Source: Chiloscyllium plagiosum (Eukaryota). From it: a stretch of 27,180 bases of DNA. Positions within the stretch are counted from its first letter, which is position 1; each line of letters begins with the position of its first letter. Position numbers and translations under genes: made by a program. Below are positions 144-26,871 of the stretch, piece by piece. The DNA lies in assembly GCF_004010195.1 (NCBI RefSeq), contig NC_057757.1, positions 4,374,314-4,401,493 on the forward strand. The letters run 5' to 3'. Below the pieces are notes generated by a model. The model ran no database searches. It saw only the letters and a program-made list of their open reading frames with translations, and was not told the DNA's origin.

Positions 144-167
144 CATAACCGCCATAATCTCCGGGAC
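144..167 (-). CDS. Micro-exon (24 nt), encodes GPGDYGGY; gene continues beyond the window start
   Basis: cttggctcctcag|GTCCCGGAGATTATGGCGGTTATG|gtaaag, phase 1-1. Differs in length from the 1405-1422 paralog by an in-frame 6 nt. Confidence 0.72.
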
Positions 168-670
168 CTGAGGAGCCAAGAGAGATTTGAGTTAATGTTG
201 TCATGGAGATTGGTTTTGGAATCTACATGTTCAGCCACACAATCAGTTTGACAATGGTTCATGTCCAAAGATTTCAACTTGACGTTGCTCATTCAAAATT
301 CAAAATGGACTCCACCTTTCGAAATTAGTTTCTTTCAATTTATTGATCCTTCCCCTTCGCTCAGATAAATATCGAACTCTTGAGGGAAGTGATATTCTGG
401 ATTGTGGTATCTCCCTCAAATCATGGGGGAGTCACGGAAGGGTGATGGGAGAGACAGCTATCCCCAAAAGCAGGAATGATCAAAGCTCAATTCTTCCTGT
501 GGTCGGTAGCTAATTCACTCAATTTAATTGTCAATTTGCAGTCGGTTCCCACTCCACCTTCACCCTCAAACCTCTACTGCCAGCATTTCCCTAAACCCCC
601 AAACTCTACTGCCAGCATTTCATCAGCATCAGAATGATCCCCAAAATCTTTATACCCAATGTTGATGCAG

Positions 671-970
671 TGGCATGGTGGCTCCATGGTTAGTGCTGCT
701 GCCTCATAGTGCCTGGAACCCATGTGTGATTCCAACCTCAGGTGAATGTCTGTGTGATGCTTGTGCATTTTCCCTGTGTCTGCGTGTGTTTCCTCCCACT
801 GTCCAAAGATGGACAGCCTAGTGAACCTTGACCATTTTAAATTGTCCCGTAGTACCCAAGGGTATGCAGGCTAATAGCGTTAACCATGGGAGTTGCAGGG
901 ATGGATTGGGACGCTCTTTTAGGGTCAATGTGGGCTGAATGGCCTGCATCCTCACATTGAATATTCCATG
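671..970 (+). mobile_element. HE1-like V-SINE (tRNA-derived)
   Basis: tggcatggtggctccatggttagtgctgctgcctca head, V-domain-like core (tgtctgcgtgtgtttcctcccactgtccaaagat), CR1-like tail. Confidence 0.8.
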
Positions 971-1148
971 AATTCCCAGACAGAATCTGTCATTGCTATA
1001 TTCCTGCTATTGGAGTTTTGTCTTTGTAATGGTGGGCATTGTGTTTTCTGTATTATCTAAATCTTGTCATTACAGAAGCTGTGCCTGGGTACGTTTGTAT
1101 CTACGAGGAGACCCTGACCACGCCTGACCCCGTCCCCACGCCTACTTC

Positions 1149-1295
1149 TTCAACACGACACCAGGTTATAACCCAACAGGTTTATTTGAAATCACAGTCT
1201 TTCAGAGCGCTGTCTGGTGAAGTGAGTTCTCCTGATGCTTAGGTTGTGATTTCAAATAAACCTGTCGGAATGTAAGCTCGTGTTGTGTGATTTCT
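1149..1295. mobile_element. Palindromic (hairpin) Penelope-derived-like element, degenerate
   Basis: caacacgacaccaggttataacccaacaggtttatttgaaatcaca is inverted relative to tgtgatttcaaataaacctgtcggaatgtaagctcgtgttgtgtg. The right arm is repeated at 1-35. Confidence 0.6.
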
Positions 1296-1404
1296 GACTC
1301 TGATAACACACATACTTATTCCTTGACCATTAGCTTCATGGACAAGGGCTTTATTTCATTAATTTTGAAGAGCTAATGGGATGAAATTAAATAGAAAACT
1401 TTAC

Positions 1405-1422
1405 CATAACCGCCTCCGTGAC
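1405..1422 (-). CDS. Micro-exon (18 nt), encodes GHGGGY
   Basis: cttgtctcctcag|GTCACGGAGGCGGTTATG|gtaaag, phase 1-1. Confidence 0.72.
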
Positions 1423-2029
1423 CTGAGGAGACAAGAGAGATTTGAGTTAATGTTGTCATGGAGTTTGGTTTTGGAATCTACATGTTCAGCCACACAATCA
1501 GTTTGACAATGGTTCATGTCCAAAGGTTTCAACTTGACGTTGCTCATTCAAAATTCAAATGGACTCCACCTTTCGAAATTAGTTTCTTTCAATTTATTGA
1601 TCCTTCCCCTTCGCTCAGATAAATATCGAACTCTTGAGGGAAGTGATAGTCTGGATTGTAGTATCTCCCTCAAATCATGGGGGAGTCACGGAAGGGTAAC
1701 GGGATAGACAGGTGCGATTTTTCCTCCCCTCCGCCTTTCCCTAAAAGCAGGAATGGTGGAACATCAATGCTTCCTGAGGTTGGTAGCTAATTCACTCAAT
1801 TTAATGGCCAATTTGCAGTCATTTCCACCCCTTGTGATGGGAGAGACAGCTATCCCCAAAAGCAGGAATGGTAAAAGCTCAATTCTTCCTGTGGTCGGTC
1901 GCTAATTCACTCAGTTTAACGGCCAATTTGCAATCGTTTCCCGCTCCCCCTTCACCCCCAAACCTCTATTGCCAACATTTCATCAGCATCAGGATGATCC
2001 CCAATATCTTTACACCCAGAGTCAATGGG

Positions 2030-2330
2030 GTGGCATGGTGGTTAGCACTGCTACCACCCAGTGCCAGGGGCCTGGGTTCTATTCCAGCCTTGGGCAACTG
2101 TCTGTGTGGAGTATGCGCATTCTGCCCATGAACGGGGAGAATCTGGCCCTATGGGTTTCCTCCTGTAGTGCAGAGATGTACAGGTTAGTGTGTACTGGCC
2201 GTGTTATAGAGTCCAGCGATGTGCGGGCTAGGTTGGGTTAGCCATGGGAAATACAGAGTAGGGGAGAGGGATGCTCTACAAAGGGTTGGTATGGACTGAA
2301 TGGCCTGCTTCCACATTGTAGGCATTCTAA
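2030..2330 (+). mobile_element. HE1-like V-SINE
   Basis: tggcatggtggttagcactgct...gggttctattccagccttgggcaactgtctgtgtggag; tail gactgaatggcctgcttccacattgtagg. Confidence 0.8.
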
Positions 2331-2540
2331 GTGGCAGTTTGTTGCAAAATTGTAGTCTGTTGCAATCCTCAGATCTCAAGAAAACAATACTGACCCTGGT
2401 GGAACATCCTGCACATTCATGCTGTTGTATAAGGTTAAGAATTTATCTGTCAACAGCATCTTTTATTTCATTTATCTATCTGCACTCATTCCTTATAGAA
2501 AAACCAAGTCTCTTAGATGAAAAACACAATACGTTTGCAC

Positions 2541-2630
2541 ATTCCTGATGAAGAGCTTATGCTCGAAACATCGATTCTCCTGCTCCTCGAATGCTGCCTG
2601 ACTGGCTGTGCTTTTCCAGCACCACGATCT
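2541..2630 (+). mobile_element. Penelope-like terminal fragment with hammerhead-like core
   Basis: CTGATGA-agagcttatgctc-GAAA followed by tctcctgctcctcgaatgctgcctgactggctgtgcttttccagc, matching the termini of the 8098-9660 element. Confidence 0.65.
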
Positions 2631-2639
2631 TTGACACAG

Positions 2640-2850
2640 TTAAGAATCAACCAGACTGCTATAGATCTGGAGTCACATGTAGACTAGATAAGGATGATGG
2701 TTTCCTTCCCTAAAGGACATGAGTAAACCAGATGGGATTTTTCCTCCCGACAACGGATTCATTGTCATTAATGTTCTTTTAAAAATTATTGAATTCAAAT
2801 CTCCATGGTGGGATTCAAACCCGGGTACCCAGAACAACATCTGGATCTCT
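2640..2850 (-). mobile_element. Deu-domain-type SINE fragment
   Basis: Reverse complement of the SINEs at 17390-17620 and 19290-19570 (ctggagtcacatgtag...ccttccctaaaggacat...attcaaacccgggt). Confidence 0.55.
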
Positions 2851-3300
2851 TTACTAGGATGTTGCCAGGGTTGGAGCGTTTGAGCTGAAGGGAGAGGCTG
2901 AACAGGCTGGGGCTGTTTTCCCTGGAATGTCGGAGGCTGAGGGGTGACCTTATTGTGGTTTATAAAATCATGAGGGGCATGGATAGAATAAATAGACAAA
3001 GTCTTTTCCCTGCGGTGCAGGAGTCCAATACTAGAGGGCATAGGTTTAGGGTGAGAGGGGAAAGATTTTAAAACGATCTAAGGGTTTAACTTTTTCATGC
3101 AGAGGGTGGTGCGTGTATGGAATGAGTCACCAGAGGAAGTAGTGGAGGCTGGTGCAATTGCAGTATTTTAAAAGGCATCTGGATGGATACATGAATAGGA
3201 TGCATTTGGAGGGATATTGGCCGGGTGCTGGCAAATGATACTAGATTAGGTTCGGATATCTGATCGTCATGGATGAGTTGGACTGAGGGCTCTATGACTT
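2850..3300 (+). mobile_element. CR1 LINE 3' fragment
   Basis: Degenerate FTRMLPGLE...RLRGDLIVVYKIMRGMDR...RGHRF...WNE motifs plus 3' tail. Confidence 0.9.
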
Positions 3301-3461
3301 TATTCACTGCATGAACACTGTAACTAGGAGATCAAACTCCATGTGTAGGGTCTTGGTGTCCTGTAAGGGTTTGTGTCAATCTGAAACCAAATCTTTGATT
3401 GCTGAGTCTCTCTATCCTTATTCCTTCTGAAGAGAAAGGTCTTTTAGATTAAAGACAATAC

Positions 3462-3482
3462 CTTTATAACCATCGCCATGAC
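3462..3482 (-). pseudogene. Homologous micro-exon (21 nt, GHGDGYK) with defective acceptor
   Basis: tctcttcctcat|GTCATGGCGATGGTTATAAAG|gtattg. Exon and upstream intron resemble the exons at 1405-1422 and 144-167, but the acceptor is CAT rather than CAG. Confidence 0.55.
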
Positions 3483-3729
3483 ATGAGGAAGAGACATATT
3501 GGGTGTTAACATTGACCAGAGAGAATGAATTGGAAAACTACATTGTCAAGTATATTCGATTAAACAACTGTTCCATTTAGAATTATAAGGATTATGAGAT
3601 AGTATTATTCTTCCAACGCCTGAGTAAACAATCCTGTCCAAGTTCATTCCAGTTCAGTTCATTTATGTTTCCTCCATTTTGCAACAAATATCAAACTATC
3701 TTACACCAAGATAGGACTGACAGTTATAG

Positions 3730-4140
3730 TTATACAGCCATAGAAATGGACAGCACGGAAACAGACCCTCCAGTGCAACTTGGCCATGCCTAACCTAATC
3801 TAGTCCCATTCCTAGCATTTGTCCCATTTCCCTCTCAACCCTTCCTATTCATGTACCCATCCAGATGCCTTTTAAATGTTGTAATTGCACCAGCCTCCAC
3901 CACTTCCTCTGGCAGCTCATTCCATTCACGTACCACCCTCTGTGTGAAAATGTTGCCCCTGAGGTCTCTTTTATATCTTTCCCCTTTCACCCTAAACCTG
4001 TGTCCTCTAGTTCTGGACTCCACTGGCCCAGGGAAAGGACCTTGTCTGTTAATCTTATCCATGCCCCTCATGATTTTATAAACCTCTATAAGGTCACCCC
4101 TCGGTGTCCGTACTGCAGGGAAAACAGCCCCAGTCTGTTT
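3730..4140 (-). mobile_element. CR1 LINE 3' fragment
   Basis: ORF 3835-4191: RGDLIEVYKIMRGMDK...RTRGHRFRV...FTQRVVREWNELPEEVVEA. Confidence 0.92.
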
Positions 4141-4546
4141 GTTCAGTCCATGTCCATGTATTTTACAGTTTACTGGGATAAACACAATCAAAAGCAGTTG
4201 GGATATGATTACCTATCAGCTATGTCACCCCAAATTAGAAATGTAAAGCCATCTGGACTGGTACTGATTGGCTGAACACCCAAAGCAGTTGGCAGTTTTG
4301 AAGATTACCCATGTTCAGTTGAGTGATTAACATGCTTGGGCAATAGCTATACCAGGTGACAAACTTGGATAGCCAAGGCAAAAGGTACCCTGTCTGCTTG
4401 TGCCCCCAAGGATACCCGCTGCCATGGTTTTACAGCAGTGTTACATAACAGAATAGACTCCCCACATACAGAGAACCCACCGGACTGTTCGGACAGATTG
4501 AAACATACCAATATTGAACAGATAGTTCCAATGTTAAAATACTTAC

Positions 4547-4561
4547 CAAATGGTTCAGGGT
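4547..4561 (-). CDS. Micro-exon 2 (15 nt), encodes DPEPF
   Basis: gtttcttccacag|ACCCTGAACCATTTG|gtaagt: strong polypyrimidine acceptor, perfect donor, length a multiple of 3, phase 1-1, in frame with exon 1. Confidence 0.72.
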
Positions 4562-4620
4562 CTGTGGAAGAAACAGATATCTGTGTTAACATCGGCTGCA
4601 GAAAAACGAGTGACGATTCA

Positions 4621-5155
4621 CATTCTGTCCAGAGGCTGTGAGCTCTGTCCATGGTCTACACTGGACACTCGGAGCTCCGTCCAGAGGCTGTGAGCTCTGT
4701 CCATGGTCTACACTGGACACTCGGAGCTCCGTCCAGAGGCTGTGAGCTCTGTCCATGGTCTACACTGGACACTCGGAGCTCCGTCCAGAGGCTACGAGCT
4801 CTGTCCATGGTCTACACTGGACACTTGGAGCTCTGTCCAGAGGCTGCGAGCTCTGTCCATGGTCTACACTGGACACTCGGAGCTCCGTCCAGAGGCTGTG
4901 AGCTCTGTCCATGGTCTACACAGGACACTCAGAGCTCTCTCCAGAGGCTATGGGCTCTGTCCATGGTCTACACTGGACACTCGGAGCTCCATCCAGATGC
5001 TGCGAGCTCTGTCCATGGTCTACACTGGACACTCGGAGCTCCGTCCAGAGGCTACGAGCTCTGTCCATGGTCTACAATGGACACTCAGAGCTCCATCCAG
5101 TGGCTGCGAGCTCTGTCCATGGTCTACACTAGACAGTCGGAGCTCCGTCTAGAGG
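4621..5155. repeat. 52-bp minisatellite, ~10 copies, in intron 1 of the micro-exon gene
   Basis: Unit ctccgtccagaggctgtgagctctgtccatggtctacactggacactcggag; atggtctaca recurs at 4651, 4703 and onward. Confidence 0.95.
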
Positions 5156-5215
5156 ACTGACATTAAAAAGCTGACCACTACCAGGGGGTGAGTGGGACAG
5201 CACACTTCTACGTAC

Positions 5216-5270
5216 CTGCCATGACCACTGCCATCAGGCTGACCAGGAGGAACAGACACAGGTACTTCAT
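5216..5270 (-). CDS. Coding part of exon 1 of a putative secreted Gly/Tyr-rich micro-exon protein: signal peptide MKYLCLFLLVSLMAVVMA
   Basis: Minus strand reads acaaccATG AAG TAC CTG TGT CTG TTC CTC CTG GTC AGC CTG ATG GCA GTG GTC ATG GCA G|gtacgt. Kozak A at -3, basic N-region, hydrophobic core, V-M-A cleavage motif; 55 nt ending in a phase-1 GT donor. Confidence 0.78.
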
Positions 5271-5319
5271 GGTTGTAGTGAGTCGGGAGTCTCACGGTAA
5301 GTTGTCTGTTTGCCTCTAG

Positions 5320-5510
5320 CTGAGGTGATTTGTACACGGTGCACCCTGGGTTTATGTACACTGTCAGACCAGCCTCCTGACACCCAGCCAAGCAACACTT
5401 GGCTCCTGTCAGAGCAGCTGCCACTCTGCCCTGCCCATGAATCAGCTTCTCTGGCAGATTGGTTACGGGTCAATCAACAAATGTCAGCCAAAAGATAAGG
5501 CATTGGCCGC
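5320..5510 (-). promoter_or_regulatory. Putative core promoter of the micro-exon gene
   Basis: Minus strand: CCAAT at 5506-5502 and 5462-5458, TATA-like TACATAAA at 5358-5351, and Inr-like AATCACC about 30 nt downstream (~5326), about 55 nt before the ATG. Confidence 0.45.
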
Positions 5511-5959
5511 AGAGCAGAGGATCCTGGAAACCTTTTCCCAGCCAGCAATCCCAGGCTGTCCACCCCTCACAATACCTGGAGCTAACCCCTGAAACCAGGC
5601 TCCTGTGGAAGGTGGGGAACAGCAGTGGGTCTGTATCTGTGGTTGACTGGGACAGGACGATGGGTCTGCATAGTCAGGGAGTTGGTCAGAGCTTTGGGAG
5701 GACCTTGTTTAAATGGGGGGATTGCCTCATCATTGATGGCCTTACCTCAATCCCACCCTTTCCCAGGAATGCTTCCTTTCCCTTCAACCCAAATTCCCAT
5801 TCCTACATAGTCATTCGAAATTTAAAACAGCCCTCAAAGATTTGACACATTCACTGCCTTGATTTTGATAAGGGATCTTCTGACTAAGGAAACAATTATA
5901 CCCAGTTGCAAAACCAATTCACTCCAGAGTGTGCCCCCTCTACGCTATTTAAACAGAAA

Positions 5960-6400
5960 GTTAAGTTCCCTCTACACTGTCCCCCATCGAACACTCCCAG
6001 GACAGGGACAGTATAGGGTTAAAAACAGAGTAAAGCTCCATCTACGCTGTCCTCCATCAAACACTTCCAGCCCAGATTAGATACAGAGTAAAGCTTCCTC
6101 TACACCGTCCCCCATCAAACAATCCCAGGACATCAACAGCATGGGATTAGATACAGAGTAAAGCTTCCTCTACACTGTCCCCCATCAAACAATCCCAGAC
6201 CAGGGACAGCACCAGATTAGATACAGAGTAAAGCTTCCTCTACATTGTTCCCCATCAAACACTCTCAGGACAGGAACAGCATGGGGTTAGATAGAGAGTA
6301 AAGCCTCCTCTACATTGTTCCCCCATGAAACACTCCCAAGACAGACACAGCACGTAGATAGATATAGAGTAAAGCTCCCTCGACACTGACCCCCATCAAA
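5960..6400 (+). repeat. Dispersed ~70-bp minisatellite array
   Basis: Unit gtaaagctccctctacactgtcccccatcaaacactcccaggacagggacagcacggggttagatacaga, about 6 degenerate copies. Confidence 0.92.
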
Positions 6401-6865: not shown

Positions 6866-8050
6866 TCATAGAATCTTAGAGTCACAGAATCATAGAGATG
6901 TACACCATGAAAATAGACCCTTCGGTCCAACTCGTCCATGCTAACCAGATACCCTAAATTAATCTAGTTCCATTGGCCAGCACTTGGCCCATATCCCTCT
7001 CAACCCTTCCTATTCATGTACACATCCTGATGCCTTTTAAATATTGTAATTGTACCAGCCTCCACCACTTCCTCTGGCAGCTCATTCCATACACGCACCA
7101 CCCTCTGTGTGAAAAAGTTGCCCCTGAGATCCCTTTTAAGTTTTACCCCTCTCACCCTAAGCCTATGCCCTCTACTTCTGGTCATCCTTACCTTGGAAAA
7201 GACTTCGTTTATTTATCCTGTCCCTCATAATTTTGTAAACCTCTATAAGGTCACCCCTCAGCCTCCGACGCTCCAGGGAAAACAGCCCCAGCCTATTCAA
7301 CCTCTCCCTATAGCTCAAATCCTCCAACCCTGGCAACATCCTTGTAAATCTTTTCTGAACCCTTTCACAACATCCTTCTGATAGGAAGGAGACCAGAATT
7401 TTTTGCAATATTCCAAACATATCCTTACTAATGTCCTGTACAGCTGCAACATAGCCTCCCAATGCCTGTACTCAATGCTCTGATCAGTAAAGGAAAGCAT
7501 TCCAAACGCCTTCTTCACGATCTTATCTACCTGTGACTCCACTTTCAAGGAACTATGAACCTACACTCCAAGGTCTCTTTGTTCAGCAACACTCCCTAGG
7601 ACCTTCCCATTAAGTGTATAAGTCCTGCCCTGATTTGCCTTTCCAAAATGCAGCACCTCGCATTTATCTAAATTCAATTCCATCTGCCACTCCTCAGCCC
7701 ATTGGCCCATCTGATCAAGATCCAGTTGTAATCCAAGGTAACTTTCTTTGCTGTCCACTACACCTCCAATTTTGGTGTCATCTGCAAAATTACGAACTAT
7801 ACCTTTTATGTTCACATCCAAATCATTTATATAAATGATGAGAAGTAGTGAACTCAGCACCGATCCTTGTGGCATTCCACTGGTCACAGACCTCCAGTCT
7901 GAAAAACAACCCTCCACCACCACCCTCTGTTTTCTACCTTCGAGCCAGTTCTTATCCGAGTTTTCCCTGTACTCCATGAGATCTAACCTTGCTAACCAGT
8001 CTCCCATGGGGAAACCTTGTTGAACACCTTACTGAAGTCCATATAGATCA
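6866..8050 (-). mobile_element. CR1 LINE, RT domain to 3' end, frameshifted
   Basis: ORFs 7561-8007 (VTSGMPQGSVLS...YINDLD...FADDTK), 7315-7548 and 7000-7185. Confidence 0.95.
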
Positions 8051-8097
8051 TGCCTGGACAGATTTGCTGGGATGTTGCCTGGCCTGGAGAGTTTCAG

Positions 8098-9660
8098 AGC
8101 TGAAAATGTGTTGCTGGAAAGGCGCAGCAGGTCAGGCAGCATCCAAGGAGCAGGGGAATCGACGTTTCGGGCATGAGCCTTCTTCAGGAATGAGGAAAAT
8201 GTGTCCAGCAGGCTAAGATAAAAGGTAGGGAGGAGGGACTTGGGGGAGGGGCGTTGGAAATGCGATAAGTGGAAGGAGGTCAAGGTGAGGGTGATAGGTA
8301 GCTGTGGGAGTCGGTTGGTTTATAGTAAATGTCCGTGTTGTTTCGGTCGCCCGAGATAGAAATGGAAAGGTCTAGGAAGGAGAGGGAGGAGTCTGAGACG
8401 GTCCAGGTGAATTTGAGGTCGGGGTGGAAGGTGTTGGTAAAGTGCATGAACTGTTCAACTTCCTCGTGGGAGCACGAGGCGGCGCCGATACAGTCATCGA
8501 TGTAGCGGAGGAAAAGGTGGGGGGTGGTGCCAGTGTAGCTACGGAAGATGGACTGTTCCACATATCTGACGAAGAGGCAGGCATAGCTGGGGCCCATGCG
8601 GGTGCCCATGGCTACTCCTTTGGTTTGGAGGAAGTGGGAGGATTGGAAAGAGAAGTTGTTCAGAGTGAGGACCAGTTCAGTCAGTCGAAGGAGGGGGTCA
8701 GTGGAAGGGTACTGGTTGGTACGGCAGGAAAGGAAGAAGCGGAAGGCTTTGAGTCCTTCGTGATGGGGGATGGAGGTGTACAGGGACTGGACGTGATGGG
8801 GGATGGAGATGTACACTGTACACCTCCATCCCCCATCACGAAGGACGCAAAGCCCTCCGTTTCTTCCTTTCCCGCCGTACCAATCAGTACCCTTCCACTG
8901 ACCCCCTCCTTCGACTGACTGAACTGGTCCTCACTCTGAACAACTTCTCTTTCCAATCCTCCCACTTCCTCCAAACTTCCTTGAGCCCCGCCCCTCCAAC
9001 CGCCACCAGGACAGAACCCCATTGGTCCTCACCTACCACCCCACCAACCTCCATATACAGCGTATCATCCGCCGTCATTTCCGCCACCTCCAAACGGACC
9101 CCACCACCAGGGATATATTTCCCTCCCCTCCCCTATCAGTGTTCCGAAAAGACCACTCCCTCCGTGACTCCCTNNNNNNNNNNNNNNNNNNNNNNNNNNN
9201 NNNNNNNNNNNNNNNNNNNNNNNNNNNNNNNNNNNNNNNNNNNNNNNNNNNNNNNNNNNNNNNNNNNNNNNNNNNNNNNNNNNNNNNNNNNNNNNNNNNN
9301 NNNNNNNNNNNNNNNNNNNNNNNNNNNNNNNNNNNNNNNNNNNNNNNNNNNNNNNNNNNNNNNNNNNNNNNNNNNNNNNNNNNNNNNNNNNNNNNNNNNN
9401 NNNNNNNNNNNNNNNNNNNNNNNNNNNNNNNNNNCACCTTGACCTCCTTCCACTTATCGCATTTCCAATGCCCCTCCCCCAAGTCCCTCCTCCCTACCTT
9501 TTATCTTAGCCTGCTGGACACACTTTCCTCATTCCTGAAGAAGGCTCTTGCCCGAAACTTCGATTCTCCTGCTCCTTGGATGCTGCCTGACATGCTGCGC
9601 TTTCCCAGCAACACATTTTCAGCTCTGATCTCCAGCATCTGCAGTCCTCACTTTCTCCTG
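8098..9660. mobile_element. Penelope-like retroelement (PLE) with internal inversion and inverted termini
   Basis: Minus-strand RT 8280-8816 (QTKGVAMGTRMGPSYACLF...RYIDD...LSFLDL...YYKPTDSHSYL). Inversion centre at ~8816. Plus-strand LVLTYHP...HSLRDS at 9022-9173. 8098-8295 is inverted relative to 9436-9625. Flanked by the direct repeat cctggagagtttcag (8083-8097, 9657-9671). Confidence 0.93.
9174..9434. other. Assembly gap (N run)
   Basis: Run of n. Confidence 1.
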
Positions 9661-10020: not shown

Positions 10021-10239
10021 TCTGTGACACTAACTTCAAATTTGTTCAGGCCATCTAATCTGTCCTCTTTCTCTGTTTTTAAATCATCCGTCATTGAAAA
10101 GCTCTCACTACTCCATCTTACTCTCCGTCTCTTCTACAGTCAGTGGGAGAGCTGAGTCCAGGATTGGTTCATTTGGAAAGGAGTTGGATAGTTTCCTGAG
10201 ATTGACCAGTGTGACAGTACGGAGAGAGAGAAATAGTGG

Positions 10240-11003
10240 CTCATTGGCCCCATTACTCAGACACGCTCTCCCAGAGTTTGTGTGATTGGTTTGTGTGAAT
10301 TTTACAAAGTTTTACAATTCCTCAATGGAATTCTCATCTTTACTGTTTGTCCTCACTCTCCCGGAAGATTGTGAGTCTGGTGGGGGCCTGGTGCAGGAGG
10401 GGACAAGGATGAGTGCATTGATGGGCAGGCAACTCTGGATGAGACAGGTTCAATGCTCCAGTCTCCTTTTCCCCATCCTCTCTCCTCTTTTCAGTGCTCT
10501 GATCAGTACTTTTGGAGACTTTGCTCCCCTTCACCCCACTATGTGACTTTGTTAAATGATTCGCCATTGGCTTCATGTCCCAGAATGCTCGCTGTCCCTG
10601 CTTGATCTCCTTCTTCAAGGATGCCACGTCAGACATTGGTGGGTCTGCCCCCCACCTCCCCCCACCTTGCCCACACCTGGCCAAATAAATATTCACGTGG
10701 ACCTTTGTAACGTTCAAGATAAATTTCCCAAAGAACGCGATGGAAAGGGATAAGATGTTCTCTGATAATCTCCGGGATAACGAGGGAAAATGTACATGGG
10801 TCATGGCATTCATTCAGCTCCTTCATGCCAAGCTACATCCGGCAATGTGGCCCATTGGCAGTGCCAATTGGCAGCGTGGGCAGAGGGGGAATGTGTGGGG
10901 AGTTGGAGAGGAACAGGTAAGTTTGAGCATCTGGTTCCCAACACTCTCCACCACTGAGGGTTTCCCCCACCCCATGTCTGGTTCAGTGGGAGACTCATCA
11001 ATG
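10240..11003 (+). pseudogene. Disrupted copy of an unidentified three-exon-like module
   Basis: Inverted paralog of 24873-25650. Exon-like 10261/10325-10370|gtgagt, then 10495-10638 (two in-frame TGA), then a third segment ending 10916|gtaagt with a lost acceptor and a 2-nt deletion. Confidence 0.5.
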
Positions 11004-11019
11004 GCGATAGTTTGGTTTC

Positions 11020-11885
11020 TCTCAGTCACCTCTCTCTTAGGGAGATATCTGCACTCTGGCTGGTGTCTCTCAATCCCTTCTCTCTCTTCGGGAGCTATCT
11101 GTACACTGACTGGTGACTCTCAGTCCTCTCTCTCTCACGGAGATATCTATACACTGCCTCATGCCTCTCAGTCCCCTCTGTCTCTCTGAGTGAGATATTT
11201 GTACACTGACTGGTGTCTCTCAGTCCTCCCCCTCTCTCAGAGAAATAGCTGGACACTTCCTCATGACTCTCAGTCCCCTCTCTCTCTTTTTCTCTCACTG
11301 GGATATCTGTGTACTGACTGGTGTCTCTCAGTCCCATCTCTCTCTGAGAGATATCTGTTCACTGACTGGTGTCTCCTAGTCCCTACTCTTTTAGGGAGAT
11401 ATCTGTACACTGACTGGTATCTCTCAGTCCCCTCTCTCTCTGTAAGAGAAATCTGTGCACTGACTGGTGTCTCTCAGTCCCCTCTCTCTCTGTAAGAGAA
11501 ATCTGTGCACTGATTGGTGTCTCTCAGTCCCCTCTCTTTCTCTCAGGGAGATATCTGTGCACTGACTGGTGTCTCTCAGTCCCCTCTCTTTCTCTCAGGG
11601 AGATATCTGTGCACTGACTGGTGTCTCTCAGTCCTCTCTCTCACGGAGATATCTATACACTGCCTCATGCCTCTCAGTCCCCTCTGTCTCTCTGAGTGAG
11701 ATATTTGTACACTGACTGGTGTCTCTCAGTCCTCCCCCTCTCTCAGAGAAATAGCTGGACACTTCCTCATGACTCTCAGTCCCCTCTCTCTCTGTAAGAG
11801 AAATCTGTGCACTGACTGGTGTCTCTCAGTCCCCTCTCTTTCTCTCAGGGAGATATCTGTGCACTGACTGGTGTCTCTCAGTCAG
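11020..11885. repeat. ~50-bp minisatellite array
   Basis: Unit gagatatctgtgcactgactggtgtctctcagtcccctctctttctctcagg, with a higher-order block repeat (11120-11285 vs 11625-11790). Confidence 0.93.
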
Positions 11886-13670: not shown

Positions 13671-15057
13671 CTTTGTCTGCAATATAAACACAGCATATTT
13701 CTATCCCTGCATTCCAGACTGAAGTCTGTTTTCCGATTAGAACTCGGTTCCATTCTTGTCCGAAAGCAGGCCTCATGTCTCCCCTCGCAGGTTGACATCT
13801 GTCCAACGGCGGTGCTAACATTTCCTCTCCCGATTTTCAGGAAACCCTGTCTGGACTGGAACCCCTGAAACAATGTGATTGTTGTTGACCTACTTTCAGC
13901 TTGCTTCGCTTGTTTGTCGAGGGAGCCGTTTCCCAAGAGCGCTCCCTTCACCCGCCCGGACCAATGGGTGCTGCCTGAGTAACACTGGAACCCCATCGCA
14001 CCTGACCACCCTATCGGTGACCATTCACAAGAACCACAAACGATACTGTCCCTTGGGAGAAGGGTTCTGTCGCCTCTCGGACTAAAGAACCTTGGGAGAA
14101 TAGTTGCTGCCTGTCAATTCTCTTGTTGATTAATTCAAATGGATTCAGGTGAAGGTTCACATGATTGTTTCCAATCAGCTTGAGTCGAGATTAAATTAAA
14201 CATGGACATAGGTTCAATCGTGTGACAGTATTCAACTCTGCCTATTCAAGTGACAGATCTTGCGTTTTGTATCGAGGGACGTTAGTCTTTTTCGGCCTGG
14301 AGTGCGTCAATAACTTTATGAAACCAGTTGCTCCAAATTAGAATTGGAGACGGGCCCTAAAGGTCACTGTGATCTCTTCCTCATACACCAGATGCTGCAA
14401 ACACAAACAGGCCCCACTTTCTGCTTCTCTTCCGAACGGTGAGAGTGAAGGTGCAAACTGGCCGCTGAGGACATTGATGAAGAGTTGGTCAGGACCTCGG
14501 TCCAGCCCTTCTCTGAGCGAGTTTCAAACGAGGAAGGCAGCTGGGGAGTTGGGGTCTTCACCGTTCGCTTCATCTGTAAATGTCAGTGAGGTTGGGCTGG
14601 GGTTTATCTCTACTGGGTTGGGTTGAGGTCAGTTGGTGTTGGGCCTGAATTGACTTAAAGTCCTTCGTGTTTCTGTGGGATAGGCGGAGGTGAACACCAG
14701 GGTGGGGGAAGGAGTTAGTTGGGTTGGGTTGAGTGAAGGTGGACTCCAATTGGTTTCTGTATCGATGATGGATGATGTAATTGCATCTTGCTTATTTAAT
14801 AAACTATTCCTGAATCTCAAGCGACTCGTTGATGGTTTTTAGAATTACAAACATATTTGTGCTTCACTCTCTTTATTCCTGAATACTGTCATAAACCAAG
14901 CAGCAACATCCAATGGGATTGGGATAACAAAGGCATTTTCAGGGAACTCCCAACAGGATCTGTGTCCATGTCTTAATGATGTGATACAATAACAGTCCGT
15001 TGGTTTCAGCATTGACAGTATCATCAACCCACTGGAACCAAAAGGGATCTGCGTTCG

Positions 15058-15362
15058 AGTAAAGCTCCCTCTACACTATCCCCATCAAACACTCCCAGGG
15101 ACAGGGACAGCACAGGGTTAGATACAGAGTAAAGCTCCCTCTACACTGTCCCCGATCAAACACTCCCAGGACAGGTATAGTACAGGGTTAGATACAGAGT
15201 AAAGCTCCCTCTACACTGTTCCCCATGAAACACTCCCAGGAGAGGGACAGCATGGGGTTACAGACAGAGTAAAGCTCCCTCTACACTGTTCCCCATCAAA
15301 CACTCCCAGGAGAGGGACAGCATGGGGTTACAGACAGAGTAAAGCTCCCTCTACACTATCCC
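15058..15362 (+). repeat. Dispersed ~70-bp minisatellite array (~4.3 copies)
   Basis: gtaaagctccctctacact recurs every ~70 bp. Confidence 0.93.
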
Positions 15363-16700: not shown

Positions 16701-17105
16701 TCCAGACTGGGCAACATCTTGGTAAATCTCTCCAGACCAGGCAACATCCTGGTAAATCTCTCCAGACCAGGCAACATCCTGGTAAATCTCTCCAGACCGG
16801 GCAACATCCTGGTAAATCTCACCAGACTGGGCAACATCTTGCTAAATCTCTCCAGACCAGGCAACATCTTGGTAAATCTCTCCAGACCGGGCAACATCCT
16901 GGTAAATCTCACCAGGCTGGGCAACATCTTGGTAAATCTCTCCAGAACGGGCAACATCCTGGTAAATCTCACCAGACTGGGCAACATCCTGGTAAATCTC
17001 TCCAGACTGGGCAACATCCTGGTAAATCTCACCAGCTTGGGTGACATCCTGATAAATCTATTCAGGCTTGGCAATATCCTGGTAAATCTCTCCAGACTGG
17101 ACAAC
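16701..17105. repeat. 30-bp tandem array (~13 copies) derived from CR1 ORF2 coding sequence
   Basis: Unit gcaacatcctggtaaatctctccagaccag; minus strand reads (ERFTRMLPGL)n. Confidence 0.95.
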
Positions 17106-17389
17106 ACCCAGTCTATCTGACCTTTCTCCATAGCTAAAATCCTGGTAAATCTTTTCTGTACCCTCTCTAAAGCATGCCTGTAGAAACTTGCGCTGTCGCT
17201 TTTGACATTGCTAGCCAGCTTTCTCTCACACCACTTTATCTGTACTGATTAACCTTTCAGCCACTCTCTGCCAATATTTACATTTCACCCTTACCTCTGA
17301 CCTGGCACTCACCTTTGCTCATTGACATGTATTTTTCCTTTTGCTATAATGGATTCCTGAACCTCGACAGTTAACCACAGATGTACTTG

Positions 17390-21030: not shown

Positions 21031-21840
21031 ATCATAGAGATGTACAGCATGGAAACAGACCCTTCGGTCCAACCCGTCCATGCCGACCAGATGTCCCAAC
21101 CCAAATCTCGTCCCACCTGCCAGCTCCCTGCTCATATCATTCCAAACCCTTCCTATTCATATACCCATCCAATGCTTTTTACATGTTGCAATTGTACTAG
21201 CCTCCACCAATAAAGGAAAGCATACCAAACGCCTTTTTCACTATCCTATCTACCTGCGACTCTACTTTCAAGGAGCTATGAACCTGCACTCCAAGGTCTC
21301 TTTGTTCAGCAACACTCCCCAGCACCTTACCATTAAGTGTGTAAGTCCTGCTAAGATTTGCTTTTCCAAAATGTAGCATTTATCAGAATTAAACTCCATC
21401 AGCCACTCTTCAGCCCATTGGACTATTTGATCAAGATCCTGCAGTAATCTGAGGTAACCTTCCTCGCTGTTCACTACACCTCCAATTTTGGTGTCATCTG
21501 CAAACTTACTAGCTATACCTCTTGTGCTCACATCCAAATCATTTATATAAATGATGAAAAGTAGTGGACCCAGCACCGATTCTTGCGGCACTCCACTGGT
21601 CACAGGCCTCCAGTCTGGAAAACAACCCTCCATCACCACCCTCTGTCTTCTACCTTTAAGCCAGTTCTGTATCCAAATGGCTAGTTCTCCCTGTATTCCA
21701 TGAGATCTGACCTTGCTAACCAGTCTCCCATGGGGAAACTTGTCAAATGCCTTACTAAAGTCCATATAGATCACATCTACCATTCTGCCCTCATCAATCC
21801 TTTTTGTTACTTCTTCAAAAAACTCAATCAAGTTTGTAAG
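21030..21840 (-). mobile_element. CR1 LINE RT fragment with internal deletion
   Basis: ORF 21268-21927: LTNLIEFFEEVTKRIDEG...YMDFSKAFDK...VTSGVPQESVLGP...FADDTK. Confidence 0.95.
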
Positions 21841-23164
21841 GAAGAGGGAGGGGGAGGGGGAGGAAGGGGATGGAGAGAGAAAGAAAGAGTTCAAGAGTGG
21901 GAGGGGGCAGAGAGGAAGAAGAAGCAAACTGGATAGCTCCTATAACTCCCAGCATTGGCACAATGGGCTAAATGCTGCCTCCCCCCCCACCCCCCCCCCC
22001 TCCTTCTGTACCATTCCACAGAAACAGCCTTTTTAACTGGGTTAAAAAAAGACAGAAGGGCTGAAGGGTCTATTTCCATACAATAAGGATTCTTAAAAAA
22101 CATTCTAAAGTCTCTGTCTTTAAACAGTTGAAACTATGACAGTGTGTCAGTGGATTTCCAGTCTATGACGAGATGCTTGCTTTCCAAATCCCTTCTCTTT
22201 ATTAACTGCAAGCGAAAGTCAATGTCGAAGGGCAGTGTTATTTTCTGTTTCGCACAGACTTCTCTGTTTTTTTCTGTTGTGGTAGTTTTAGGACCTTTCC
22301 TTTCATCTTCTTGCCTCAGTGCACGTGACAATAAAATCAATTCAACTCAATAAACGGAAATGTTGCAACTGACCAAAGGTTTTCTGATTTACAAATCATT
22401 TTGTCTCAGCTTGTCTTTCTTTGTTTCTGGGTGTAAGTCAGTACTGCAGATTCAGGAGATTAGAGTCAAGGTTAGAGTGGTGCTGGAAAAGCACAACAGG
22501 TCGGGCAGCATCCGAGGAGCAGGAAAACTGTTATTCCTGCACCACTTTAATATTGCGTTTTTTTTTTCAATTTGCCCTCAAGAGCACTTTCGCAGAGCGA
22601 CAGCTGTCCTTGAACGCTTTTAAAGTTCCATTTGTTTTTAAAAATGGGTCTGTCCTGGGACTTTAGTTTTAGTTTTTAAAGTGTTAAGAGAGGCTGAGGG
22701 CTTGGGGACAGATTTATCGGCTTTGGTTTTGGTTGTCACACCTTGGTCTCATTGGTAAATGTAACTTAACTCTGAAACTGATGGATCAGCATTAAGAAAA
22801 GGACTTTTCAAGGGCTGCCAATTGTTTTTTTTACCTTTTCTGTTCACTCGTTGTCACTGACCAGTTGTCACATCTACTTTTCAGTGCGCGTTGGGTGATG
22901 TATGGCTTTCTACATGTCAGCCTACGTAAGCTAGCCTGCTAGGACTGGGTTCTGTTGCATACCCTAGTTATCCCTGCTCTGGAATGGGAGGACCATGGAA
23001 ACTAAGTAACTCCCACAGACCTAGGGCTTAAGGGAGGCAGGTCAGGGTGGGTCCGGGCTCACTACAGATCCCTCTACCCCTGGTGGATGTAGATCCCTCC
23101 GTTTGCATCAATGAGAAGATGACAATTGTTTTCTTGGTGGTCAGTGGACTCCTGTGTTTGCAAT

Positions 23165-24810: not shown

Positions 24811-24958
24811 CCATGACTGAGAAACAAATGTCTGTTGTTTGTTCCGATAGGTCCAGTTGGCCAAGCATGGACATCGATGAATCTCCCCACGGACCAGACA
24901 TGGGGTGGGGGAAACCCTCAGTGGTGGAGGGTGTTGGGAACCAGATGCTCAAACATAC

Positions 24959-25554
24959 CTGTTCCTCTCCAATTCCCCACACATTTCCCCTCTGCCCACG
25001 CTGCCAGTTGGCACTGCCAATGGGCCACATTGTCGGAGATGTACCTTGGCATGAAGGAGCTGAGTGAATGCCATGAGCCGCGGACATTTTCCCTCGTTAT
25101 CCCGGAGATTATCAGAGAACATCTTATCCCTTTCCATCGCGCCCTCTGGGAGATTTATCTCGAATGTCACAATGATCCCTGTGAATATTTATTGGGCCAG
25201 GTGTGGGTGAGAGGGGGGGGGTGGGGCGGGGCAGACTCACCAACATTTGATGTGGCATCCTTGAAGAAGGAGATCAAGCAGGGACAGCGAGCATTCTGGG
25301 ACATGAAGTCAATGATGAGCAGTTTAACAAAATCATTTTGTGGAGTGAAGGAGAACGGTGTCTCTGAAAGAACAGATCGGAGCGCTAATGAGAGGTGAGA
25401 GGATGGGGAAAAGGACACTGGGGCATTGAACCTGTCCCACCCAGAGTTGCCGGCCCATCAGCGCACTCCCCCATGTCCCCACCAGCCCCAGGCCCCCACC
25501 AGACTCACAATCTCCCGGGAGATTGAGGACAAACAGTAAAGATGGGAATGCCAT
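24959..25554 (-). CDS. Open copy of the unidentified three-exon-like module (25554-25509, 25384-25241, 25178-24959)
   Basis: GT-AG bounded segments join in frame: MAFPSLLFVLNLPGD|SLRSVLSETPFSFTPQNDFVKLLIIDFMSQNARCPCLISFFKDATSNV|GIIVTFEINLPEGAMERDKMFSDNLRDNEGKCPRLMAFTQLLHAK... The second intron is only 62 nt. Confidence 0.38.
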
Positions 25555-25669
25555 TGAGGAATCGTAAAACTTTGCAAAACTCAGCCCTGAAACCAATCAC
25601 ACAAATTCTGGGAGACTGTATCTGAGCAATGGGGCCAATGAGGCACCATTAATGAAAACACTTTTTGCT

Positions 25670-26120
25670 CTGTGTAGAGGGAGCTTTACTCTGTATCTAA
25701 CCCCGTGCTGTCCCTGTCCTGGGAGTGTTTGATGGGGGACAGTGTAGGGGGAACTTTACTCTGTATCTAACCCCGTGCTGTCCATGTCCTGTGAGTGTTT
25801 GATGGGGAACTGTGCTGTCCCTGTCCTGGGAATGTTTGATGGGGGAACAGAGTAGAGGGAACTTTACTCTGTATCTAACCCCGCGCTGTCCCTGTCCTGG
25901 GAGTGTTTGATGGGGTACAGTGTAGAGGAAGCTTTACTCTGTATCTAACCCTGTGCTGCCCCTGTCCTGGGAGTGTTTGAAGGGGGACAGTGTAGAGAGA
26001 GCTTTACTCTGTATCTAACCCCCTGGTGCCCCTGTCCTGGGGGTATTTGATGCTGGGACAGTGTGGAGGGAGCTTTACTCTGTATCTAACCCTGTGCTGT
26101 CCCTGTCCTGGGAGTGTTGG
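25670..26120 (-). repeat. Dispersed ~70-bp minisatellite array (reverse orientation)
   Basis: gctttactctgtatctaaccccgtgctgtccctgtcctgggagtgtttgatggggg, about 6 copies. Confidence 0.93.
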
Positions 26121-26871
26121 ATTCTGGGACAGCATAGTGGGCAATAGACAGATAGAGTACCAATATCTCCATCTCACTGATCTTGTCATGCTCCATGGGG
26201 ATACTACCCTTCTGAACAAGAATCAAGAACTTGATAATGAGGCTCTTTTGCCAGCTGGGCACTTTGCATCCTCTGGTCTCTTAGGTAGTGCCATGGGGAG
26301 CTCTTTGCCCTTGGCAGGGGTGCACGTCTCTTGCAGGGATGGTACGAGTTGCCATACCAACTACCCTGACAATGAAGCAGTCTCACCCTGTTTGAAGAAG
26401 CTGGCTGTGGTGAGGTGCGCCAATCATGGCACAGGGTGTCCACTCAATGAAGGACAGTTGGCACGTCAAGGGGTCTGCCCAACGTCCAATTGGGTCATGG
26501 GTGCTAGGATTCTATCCTAGCCCCTGAAGCGACGGAGACAAGATGGATAGCACCCTTTGACCTCCACTGTCTCCGTGCCACGATGAAGCTGACCAGTTCC
26601 TGTCCAACTCTCTGCCAACCATCTCTTCCATTCCGGTGCTTCTACCGTTGCCAACTGCTGTGGTCAGGCCGGACTTGGTTGAGAGGAATATTTCAATATG
26701 TCACTGTGTGGAGACGAAGCCCTGGCATGGAGTCGCTCCTTTTGACAGCACTCTCGATAAAATAAGAAGGTCGCCATTTGACAATCCAAATGCCAGATTG
26801 GCCATGCCAACTCTGTCTTCTATGAAGGCGTGACAGCGAGCGACTGGCCAGAAATCCCTCTCCAGGAGTCC

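Follow-up and report, generated by a model that had tools for sequence, protein, structure and literature searches.

The window analysed here, a stretch of 27,180 nt from the shark Chiloscyllium plagiosum (NC_057757.1:4374314-4401493; C48 in the copy lists), carries on its minus strand the first part of a gene whose coding sequence is, apart from a signal-peptide exon, divided over exons of 15-24 nt, and which is one member of a clustered gene family. We lean towards the reading that this gene, as part of a shark micro-exon family, encodes a matrix protein that is secreted, disordered and cross-linked through Tyr/His; the egg capsule (oviducal gland) is tentatively put forward as the likeliest single tissue, with skin, fin rays and other gland secretions sharing the rest of the tissue probability. 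All genome-wide copy counts given below were made over the 3.56-Gb assembly.

Four coding exons lie within the window: i) exon 1, with a coding part (5216-5270; 55 nt) that specifies an 18-residue signal peptide plus one nucleotide and ends at a phase-1 GT donor, and a 5' untranslated part that would extend over 5271-5327 (a contig of read run X1, described below, reaches 5310); ii) exon 2 (4547-4561; 15 nt), encoding a short acidic X-Pro spacer and kept together with its splice sites in contigs C90234 and C85405; and iii) exons 3 (1405-1422; 18 nt) and 4 (144-167; 24 nt), the first and second type-A repeat exons. Exons 2 to 4 are all of phase 1-1. Each of the four is bounded by an acceptor of the polypyrimidine-CAG type, by a GT donor, or by both; the introns are all in phase 1 and the joined exons give 112 nt in a single open frame. 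The places, sizes, common strand, phases and coherent frame that had been proposed in an earlier sequence-only reading of this DNA are thereby confirmed, as is the promoter, which consists of a TATA-like box (TACATAAA; 5351-5358, minus), with transcription presumably starting ~30 nt below it, and two CCAAT boxes (5458-5462 and 5502-5506, minus). The TATA-like box is non-canonical: the canonical form TATATAAA is found in six of the eight genomic copies of exon 1, and the window gene and one other copy are without it. What had escaped the earlier reading is that exons 4 and 3 sit in tandem intron-plus-exon units that are 90% identical (1-549 and 1262-1826, within 1-1826; two of eight such units), that a 21-nt exon-like unit encoding Gly/His/Tyr/Lys (3462-3482, minus) has been silenced, with its donor intact and CAT at its acceptor, and that 12 more exons lie outside. 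The silenced unit is homologous to units of a neighbouring paralogue.

The expectation that the remaining exons would be found in the adjacent DNA proved correct. Past the window start there are 12 further phase-1 exons of 18-24 nt (six type-A and six intact type-B), the last ending at C48:4349371, so that the gene as seen has 16 coding exons (370 nt, of which 315 sit in the 15 exons of 15-24 nt) and 15 introns, all in phase 1, over a span of 30.2 kb. The type-A exons, eight in total and of 18 or 24 nt, are carried by tandem units of ~1.3-1.5 kb that are 89-99% alike; downstream of this array follow the six intact type-B exons, 21 nt each, in units of ~2 kb. Four assembly gaps may hide further exons. 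All 14 intact repeat exons are free of stops and a multiple of 3 in length, with indels of 1-9 nt in their flanks and length differences of 6 nt within the exons themselves. An 11-nt deletion has removed the donor of the first type-B unit, which, if used, would read into a stop. Two other exon-like candidates in the type-B units were rejected: a pseudo-exon of 24 nt (38 nt from a donor and broken in 3/7 copies) and one of 48 nt (weak donor, unrelated composition).

The predicted product is a secreted, disordered chain of ~105 or more residues. Its signal peptide has a basic N-terminus, a hydrophobic core with a mean hydropathy of 2.5 over residues 3-14 and an Ala at the end of the exon, and would be cut after Ala18; the Asp-Pro-Glu-Pro start of the remaining chain may then be trimmed by a dipeptidyl peptidase. 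Among the 105 residues that follow the signal peptide there are 52 Gly, 20 Tyr, 10 His, 7 Pro, 5 Arg, 4 Asp, 3 Lys, 2 Glu and 2 Phe (50% Gly, 19% Tyr and 10% His; Gly+Pro 56%), with no Ser, Leu, Val or Ala. With six acidic residues the net charge is +2, His left out.

Evidence for splicing was sought in public read runs, 19 of which were listed and seven of which held part of the stretch; none is recorded as RNA, and four were compared with window 5156-5700. Run X1, whose RNA status is guessed and whose organism label differs from that of the best-matching runs, yielded one contig of 705 nt (depth 4) that matches window 5217-5310 with two mismatches and leaves it exactly at the exon-1 donor. 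The 30 letters beyond, aligned by eye, correspond to the last base of exon 1, exon 2 (19/21 identical) and the first eight bases of exon 3 (8/8) of a Pro/Tyr-rich paralogue (A), and the contig thus skips introns of 1,090 and 3,471 nt. Since it passes from the donor into exons 2 and 3 of paralogue A, the family is spliced, the contig representing the counterpart of paralogue A and not the window gene. A processed DNA copy would look the same, yet would still record splicing. Run X2 reads on from 5326 across the donor and enters the intron, as expected equally for DNA and for unspliced RNA, and no reads were placed from the single-cell runs X8 and X9, of which ~2% and ~6% were sampled, too little for a test. 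The proposal of a spliced, secreted Gly/Tyr-rich micro-exon gene therefore stands for the family, through contig X1, the chance controls given next and the eight exon-1 copies; the junctions of the window gene itself were not seen.

The chance of finding such exons was assessed with an untrained splice filter for symmetric phase-1 candidates. On the gene strand (30.7 kb) it returned 19 candidates, 14 of them with at least 60% Gly/Tyr/His, as against a single candidate and none of that composition on the opposite strand, 11 and one in 180 kb of control DNA (both strands), and a mean of 1.3 and none in 100 shuffles. The tandem copies are not independent, so that this result amounts to about two unit types plus exons 1 and 2 rather than to 14 events.

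What had been described as a single gene turned out to be one member of a clustered family. Exon 1 has eight genomic copies, five on C48 (2.88-4.58 Mb) and three on unplaced contigs; one of them carries a stop and is without a donor, and no retrocopy containing exon 1 was found among these eight matches. A 52-bp minisatellite in intron 1 (4627-5155) is confined to family loci: its 47 matches fall in nine places, namely the eight exon-1 copies and contig C85405, which holds a copy of exon 2. The minisatellite is 85-93% alike among paralogues and the promoters are down to 65-91% in six of seven; either concerted evolution or a regulatory role of the intron is proposed for this likeness. The signal exon is 98% identical in four of seven paralogues, and the promoters of those are 78-100% identical. 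Contig C90234, which is without the entire type-A array, represents a paralogue and not an allele, because similarity stops ~450 nt above the start codon. The paralogue that shares the TATA variant of the window gene keeps the matching type-B exon intact. Paralogue C lies tail to tail with the window gene and has 29 intact exons with near-balanced Lys/Asp, besides at least three donor-less units and one unit with a stop. Just upstream of the window gene a further family array was observed (C48:4406146-4423866, minus; L062, L063, L109), with four intact 21-nt Gly/Ser/Tyr exons and two decayed units; the units of this array resemble contig C91784, and no exon 1 was seen for it.

Two other elements, an upstream element restricted to the cluster and a long terminal exon, accompany several of the exon-1 copies. 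The upstream element (10230-11000, with an inverted copy at 24876-25650) has 19 matches, of which one, a weak one, is on C15; the other 18 are on C48 or on unplaced contigs, for the most part next to a copy of exon 1, and C96586 and C92176, which are among the contigs that carry the element, may hold further family members. A candidate family terminal exon (13841-14825, plus) has a branch point, an acceptor at 13841, a long conserved 3' part and AATAAA at 14798-14803, and each of its seven matches is either close to a family gene on C48 or on a family contig. In paralogues A and C, as well as in contigs C100447 and C99114, it stands in sense after the last micro-exon (reading frame uncertain), and the copy in the window belongs to a neighbouring family member and not to the window gene. 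Because this copy and the inverted copy of the upstream element oppose the flanking minus-strand genes, the gap-bounded segment 12676-27180 may be misoriented, and it would hold the end of the upstream gene. For the window gene itself, the minus strand from its last exon to the end of paralogue C yielded no terminal exon, which probably lies in the scaffold gap at C48:4347530; a candidate last exon at C48:4342610, without a homologue in the family, has been superseded. In contig C100447 a unit 95% like the last unit of the window gene is joined to the family terminal exon, which makes this contig the 3' end of the window gene or of a close paralogue.

The 24-nt acceptor context of the type-B exons occurs 27 times in the genome at two mismatches or fewer (reversed control: 0): seven times in the window gene, 12 times in a Gly/Tyr/His array at 8.0 Mb, twice on C47, once on C7 and five times on unplaced contigs. 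Since the context is shared, one cassette seems to have seeded several genes. On C47 (10433248-10469240, plus; L122-L125) there is an array of 24-nt phase-1 Gly/Lys/Pro exons of which the acceptor and donor flanks match the family. The large chromosome C7 has a lone type-B exon (41738913, minus; L081, with L079:726) that is 99% identical over 610 nt to C99114, and represents either a moved unit or an assembly artefact. It is possible, and in this joint form we would not call it probable, that in cartilaginous fish one ancestral phase-1 cassette spread by copying, both inside genes and from gene to gene, on at least three chromosomes, giving distinct low-complexity secreted proteins (Gly/Tyr/His, Gly/Tyr/Lys/Asp, Pro/Tyr and Gly/Lys/Pro) behind a near-fixed signal exon, and that this superfamily is the vertebrate counterpart of the schistosome micro-exon genes and supplies non-collagen, Tyr-rich, tannable egg-capsule proteins.

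We connect the gene structure to a function as follows. The gene has grown by tandem copying of intron-plus-exon units behind the signal-peptide exon, and with symmetric exons, units can be gained, lost or skipped without a break of the frame, by which length and chemistry are tuned. The chain might be held soluble in acidic gland granules with its His protonated, condense on release at seawater pH through Tyr stacking, and finally be fixed into a tanned matrix by Tyr oxidation (dityrosine, or DOPA-quinone with His/Lys). This sequence of storage, condensation and cross-linking is favoured because the available part of a review (PMC9999432) describes such traits in Gly/Tyr/His-rich proteins: GGY/GHY repeats in suckerins and squid beak proteins, His- and Gly-rich hard bulk proteins with solubility under pH control, and elastomers with 45-60% Gly+Pro, the Tyr-rich ones of which cross-link via dityrosine.

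Several observations weigh against it. The capsule of catsharks and sharks is, in the portions available of PMC10230700 and PMC8894161, mainly collagen, and the exons are without Gly-X-Y periodicity; and the support from X1 consists of a single depth-4 contig from a run of guessed RNA status. As to the window gene, its TATA is non-canonical, one of its exons is silenced, one unit has no donor, and the scaffold contains no terminal exon for it. Moreover, the type-B exons are more variable than their flanks (8/21 versus 30/300 columns, p=0.001, small numbers; p=0.04 for the non-CpG columns), with pN 0.20 versus pS 0.10 (small numbers), and the 24-nt type-A exons have pN = pS (0.28; small numbers); the excess variation of the type-B exons fits diversifying defence peptides equally well. 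The family is without description in the full-text literature that was searched, and neither was an elasmobranch capsule proteome found there; subscription papers on capsule proteins, which were mostly outside this scope, could bear on this.

The rival to which we assign a lesser, still appreciable probability is that the genes encode precursors of Gly/Tyr/His-rich host-defence peptides that are released from skin, mucosal or reproductive glands and have become diverse as exons were gained and skipped. Its appeal is the near-identical signal exon in front of mature parts that are very different across paralogues, together with exons that outpace their flanks by changes mostly at the amino-acid level; the X-Pro dipeptide start may presumably also be likened to the pro-pieces of insect and nematode defence peptides. 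However, a net charge of just +2 at neutral pH (with 10 His besides) is low for this role, dibasic cleavage sites are absent from the exons of the window gene, and the 29 intact exons of the neighbouring paralogue, with near-balanced Lys/Asp, are long for a defence peptide. Lower again we place the case in which the family is real and the window copy is decaying or truncated at the donor-less unit, so that the full 16-exon message is not made. The non-canonical TATA, the silenced exon at 3462-3482 and the 11-nt deletion that leads the first type-B unit into a stop all suit this, as do the stop in one exon-1 copy and the donor-less and stop-bearing units of paralogue C, but all 15 intact exons after exon 1 have come through recent duplications (units 89-99% alike) with their frame and splice sites preserved, symmetric exons tolerate skipping, and the paralogue with the same TATA variant retains the matching type-B exon.

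That the gene is a diverged member of a known vertebrate family (tropoelastin, SCPP, MFAP2/5 or dermokine/suprabasin) is improbable. A signal peptide with short symmetric Gly-rich exons is, as we take it, common to tropoelastin and dermokine, but the phase-0 introns, SxE sites and acidic tracts of the SCPPs and the Ala/Lys or Val/Pro domains of tropoelastin are absent, the MAGP domain is on C34 and not on C48, and the neighbours are a C1s-like gene and MED11. Finally, we hardly credit the explanation by chance splice-like motifs that were multiplied by tandem repeats, or by a locus that hosts repeated structured RNAs. The repeat exons derive from just two units, and their number is not independent evidence, but the spliced contig X1 largely refutes this explanation, and the strand and composition controls, the eight exon-1 copies and the absence of Rfam matches (six sources, 77 kb) all speak against it.

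The family cluster is flanked by an exon for a C1s-like protease at 4276 kb of C48 and by a MED11 exon at 4430 kb (matched below the curated cut-off); MED11 presumably lies in human 17p13. The C1s-like exon (~4275.7 kb; L064:3019-3810, plus) encodes a single-exon protease domain in which the catalytic His and Ser motifs are altered, and finds its best protein matches in sharks; the matching shark and ray models are long and contain two protease domains, the second being apparently inactive like the one here. Six of 17 such long models of other species were inspected, and no Gly/Tyr insert was found in them. Of 1,046 frames in unique sequence near the cluster, 150 were searched with Pfam, and only the trypsin exon, MED11, a zinc-finger frame and pieces of transposons were recovered. 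The zinc-finger frame (L121:8207-8809, minus) is intronless and by impression a processed pseudogene; another frame (L115:7556-8038, plus) is receptor-like by impression and had no Pfam match. ARAGORN found nothing in the window. A protein search with a 41-residue signal-peptide frame of a paralogue (23 of 41 residues from non-coding flank), not with the spliced product, gave four candidates, none at E<=10, and a second protein search with the 41-residue signal-peptide frame and an atlas search gave no usable match, the query being mostly non-coding flank. The view that this is no named gene is thus in line with the searches that were run, and its being unannotated was weakly tested by a signal-peptide query; since the spliced product was not a query, database models under generic names may exist. 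The window further contains ordinary 30-, 50- and 70-bp minisatellites (5959-6400, 11013-11883, 15057-15362, 16701-17106 and 25672-26122) and LINE fragments (~7200-9100 and ~21300-21900).

Through the analysis, about ten genes and pseudogenes beyond the reach of frame-based annotation now have coordinates, and the C1s-like gene, MED11, the family-only minisatellite and the terminal exon provide anchors for other sharks and rays. The family is a tractable case of protein growth by intron-plus-exon copying, with exon births and deaths side by side, and, if structural, its products are candidate components of a vertebrate biomaterial that is tanned.

Among known systems, lamprin and tropoelastin are similar in being vertebrate secreted Gly-rich non-collagen matrix proteins with, as we take their exon structure to be, short in-frame exons. 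Lamprin has GGLGY repeats, and tropoelastin has alternating Val/Pro/Gly hydrophobic and Ala/Lys cross-link domains, the VPGVG motif and a basic C-terminal exon with two Cys. In the shark gene GGLGY and VPGVG are absent, the 15 exons after exon 1 encode no Leu, Val or Ala and only three Lys in 105 residues, the neighbours are different, and no basic tail with a Cys pair is seen when the terminal exons of the paralogues are read in the phase-1 frame (frame uncertain; the window gene's own last exon lies outside the scaffold). Lamprin is described as an elastin-like cartilage protein in the accessible part of PMC3142159. For MFAP2/MFAP5, the MAGP domain (PF05507) exceeded the cut-off only on C34, and exons hidden in gaps are possible at the C48 locus. 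The elasmobranch scpp genes, according to the sections available of PMC9122587, share a signal peptide, a Tyr-rich part and having been missed by annotation, and differ in their phase-0 introns, Asp/Glu tracts and SxE sites; SCPP introns are there mostly in phase 0, acidic tracts and SxE sites are traits of the family, and scpp lies at the sparc-L locus. Here 15 of 15 introns are in phase 1, the 105 residues include six acidic ones and no Ser, and the nearest genes found are the C1s-like gene and MED11 (sparc-L was not searched for). Gly-rich antimicrobial peptides are marked by antimicrobial activity and a cationic mature peptide, to which the chain here compares with a net charge of +2 plus 10 His. 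The M2 modules of the suckerins and the His-rich squid beak proteins have, in the part available of PMC9999432, the GGY/GHY-type repeats, high Gly and His, secretion and Tyr cross-link candidates in common with the shark protein, which is without their Ala/Thr beta-sheet modules, and this likeness is one of composition only and is probably convergent. In overall architecture the closest parallel is with the micro-exon genes (MEGs) of Schistosoma, of which the available text reports coding sequence mostly in very small symmetric exons, a signal peptide and a multi-gene family (PMC4350168), as well as recent duplications and raised non-synonymous change (PMC4350168; PMC10526429), all as seen here; unlike in these genes, the exons of the shark family are low-complexity Gly/Tyr/His repeats that were duplicated along with the adjoining introns, and a relation in sequence is not expected. 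On the isoform pool that MEGs form by exon skipping, the shark material consists of the one spliced contig with its 30 letters. Since the same text restricts MEGs to flatworms (PMC4350168) and the host is a shark, the gene is not a MEG by descent: on this comparison, it works architecturally like the schistosome MEGs and is not one of them.

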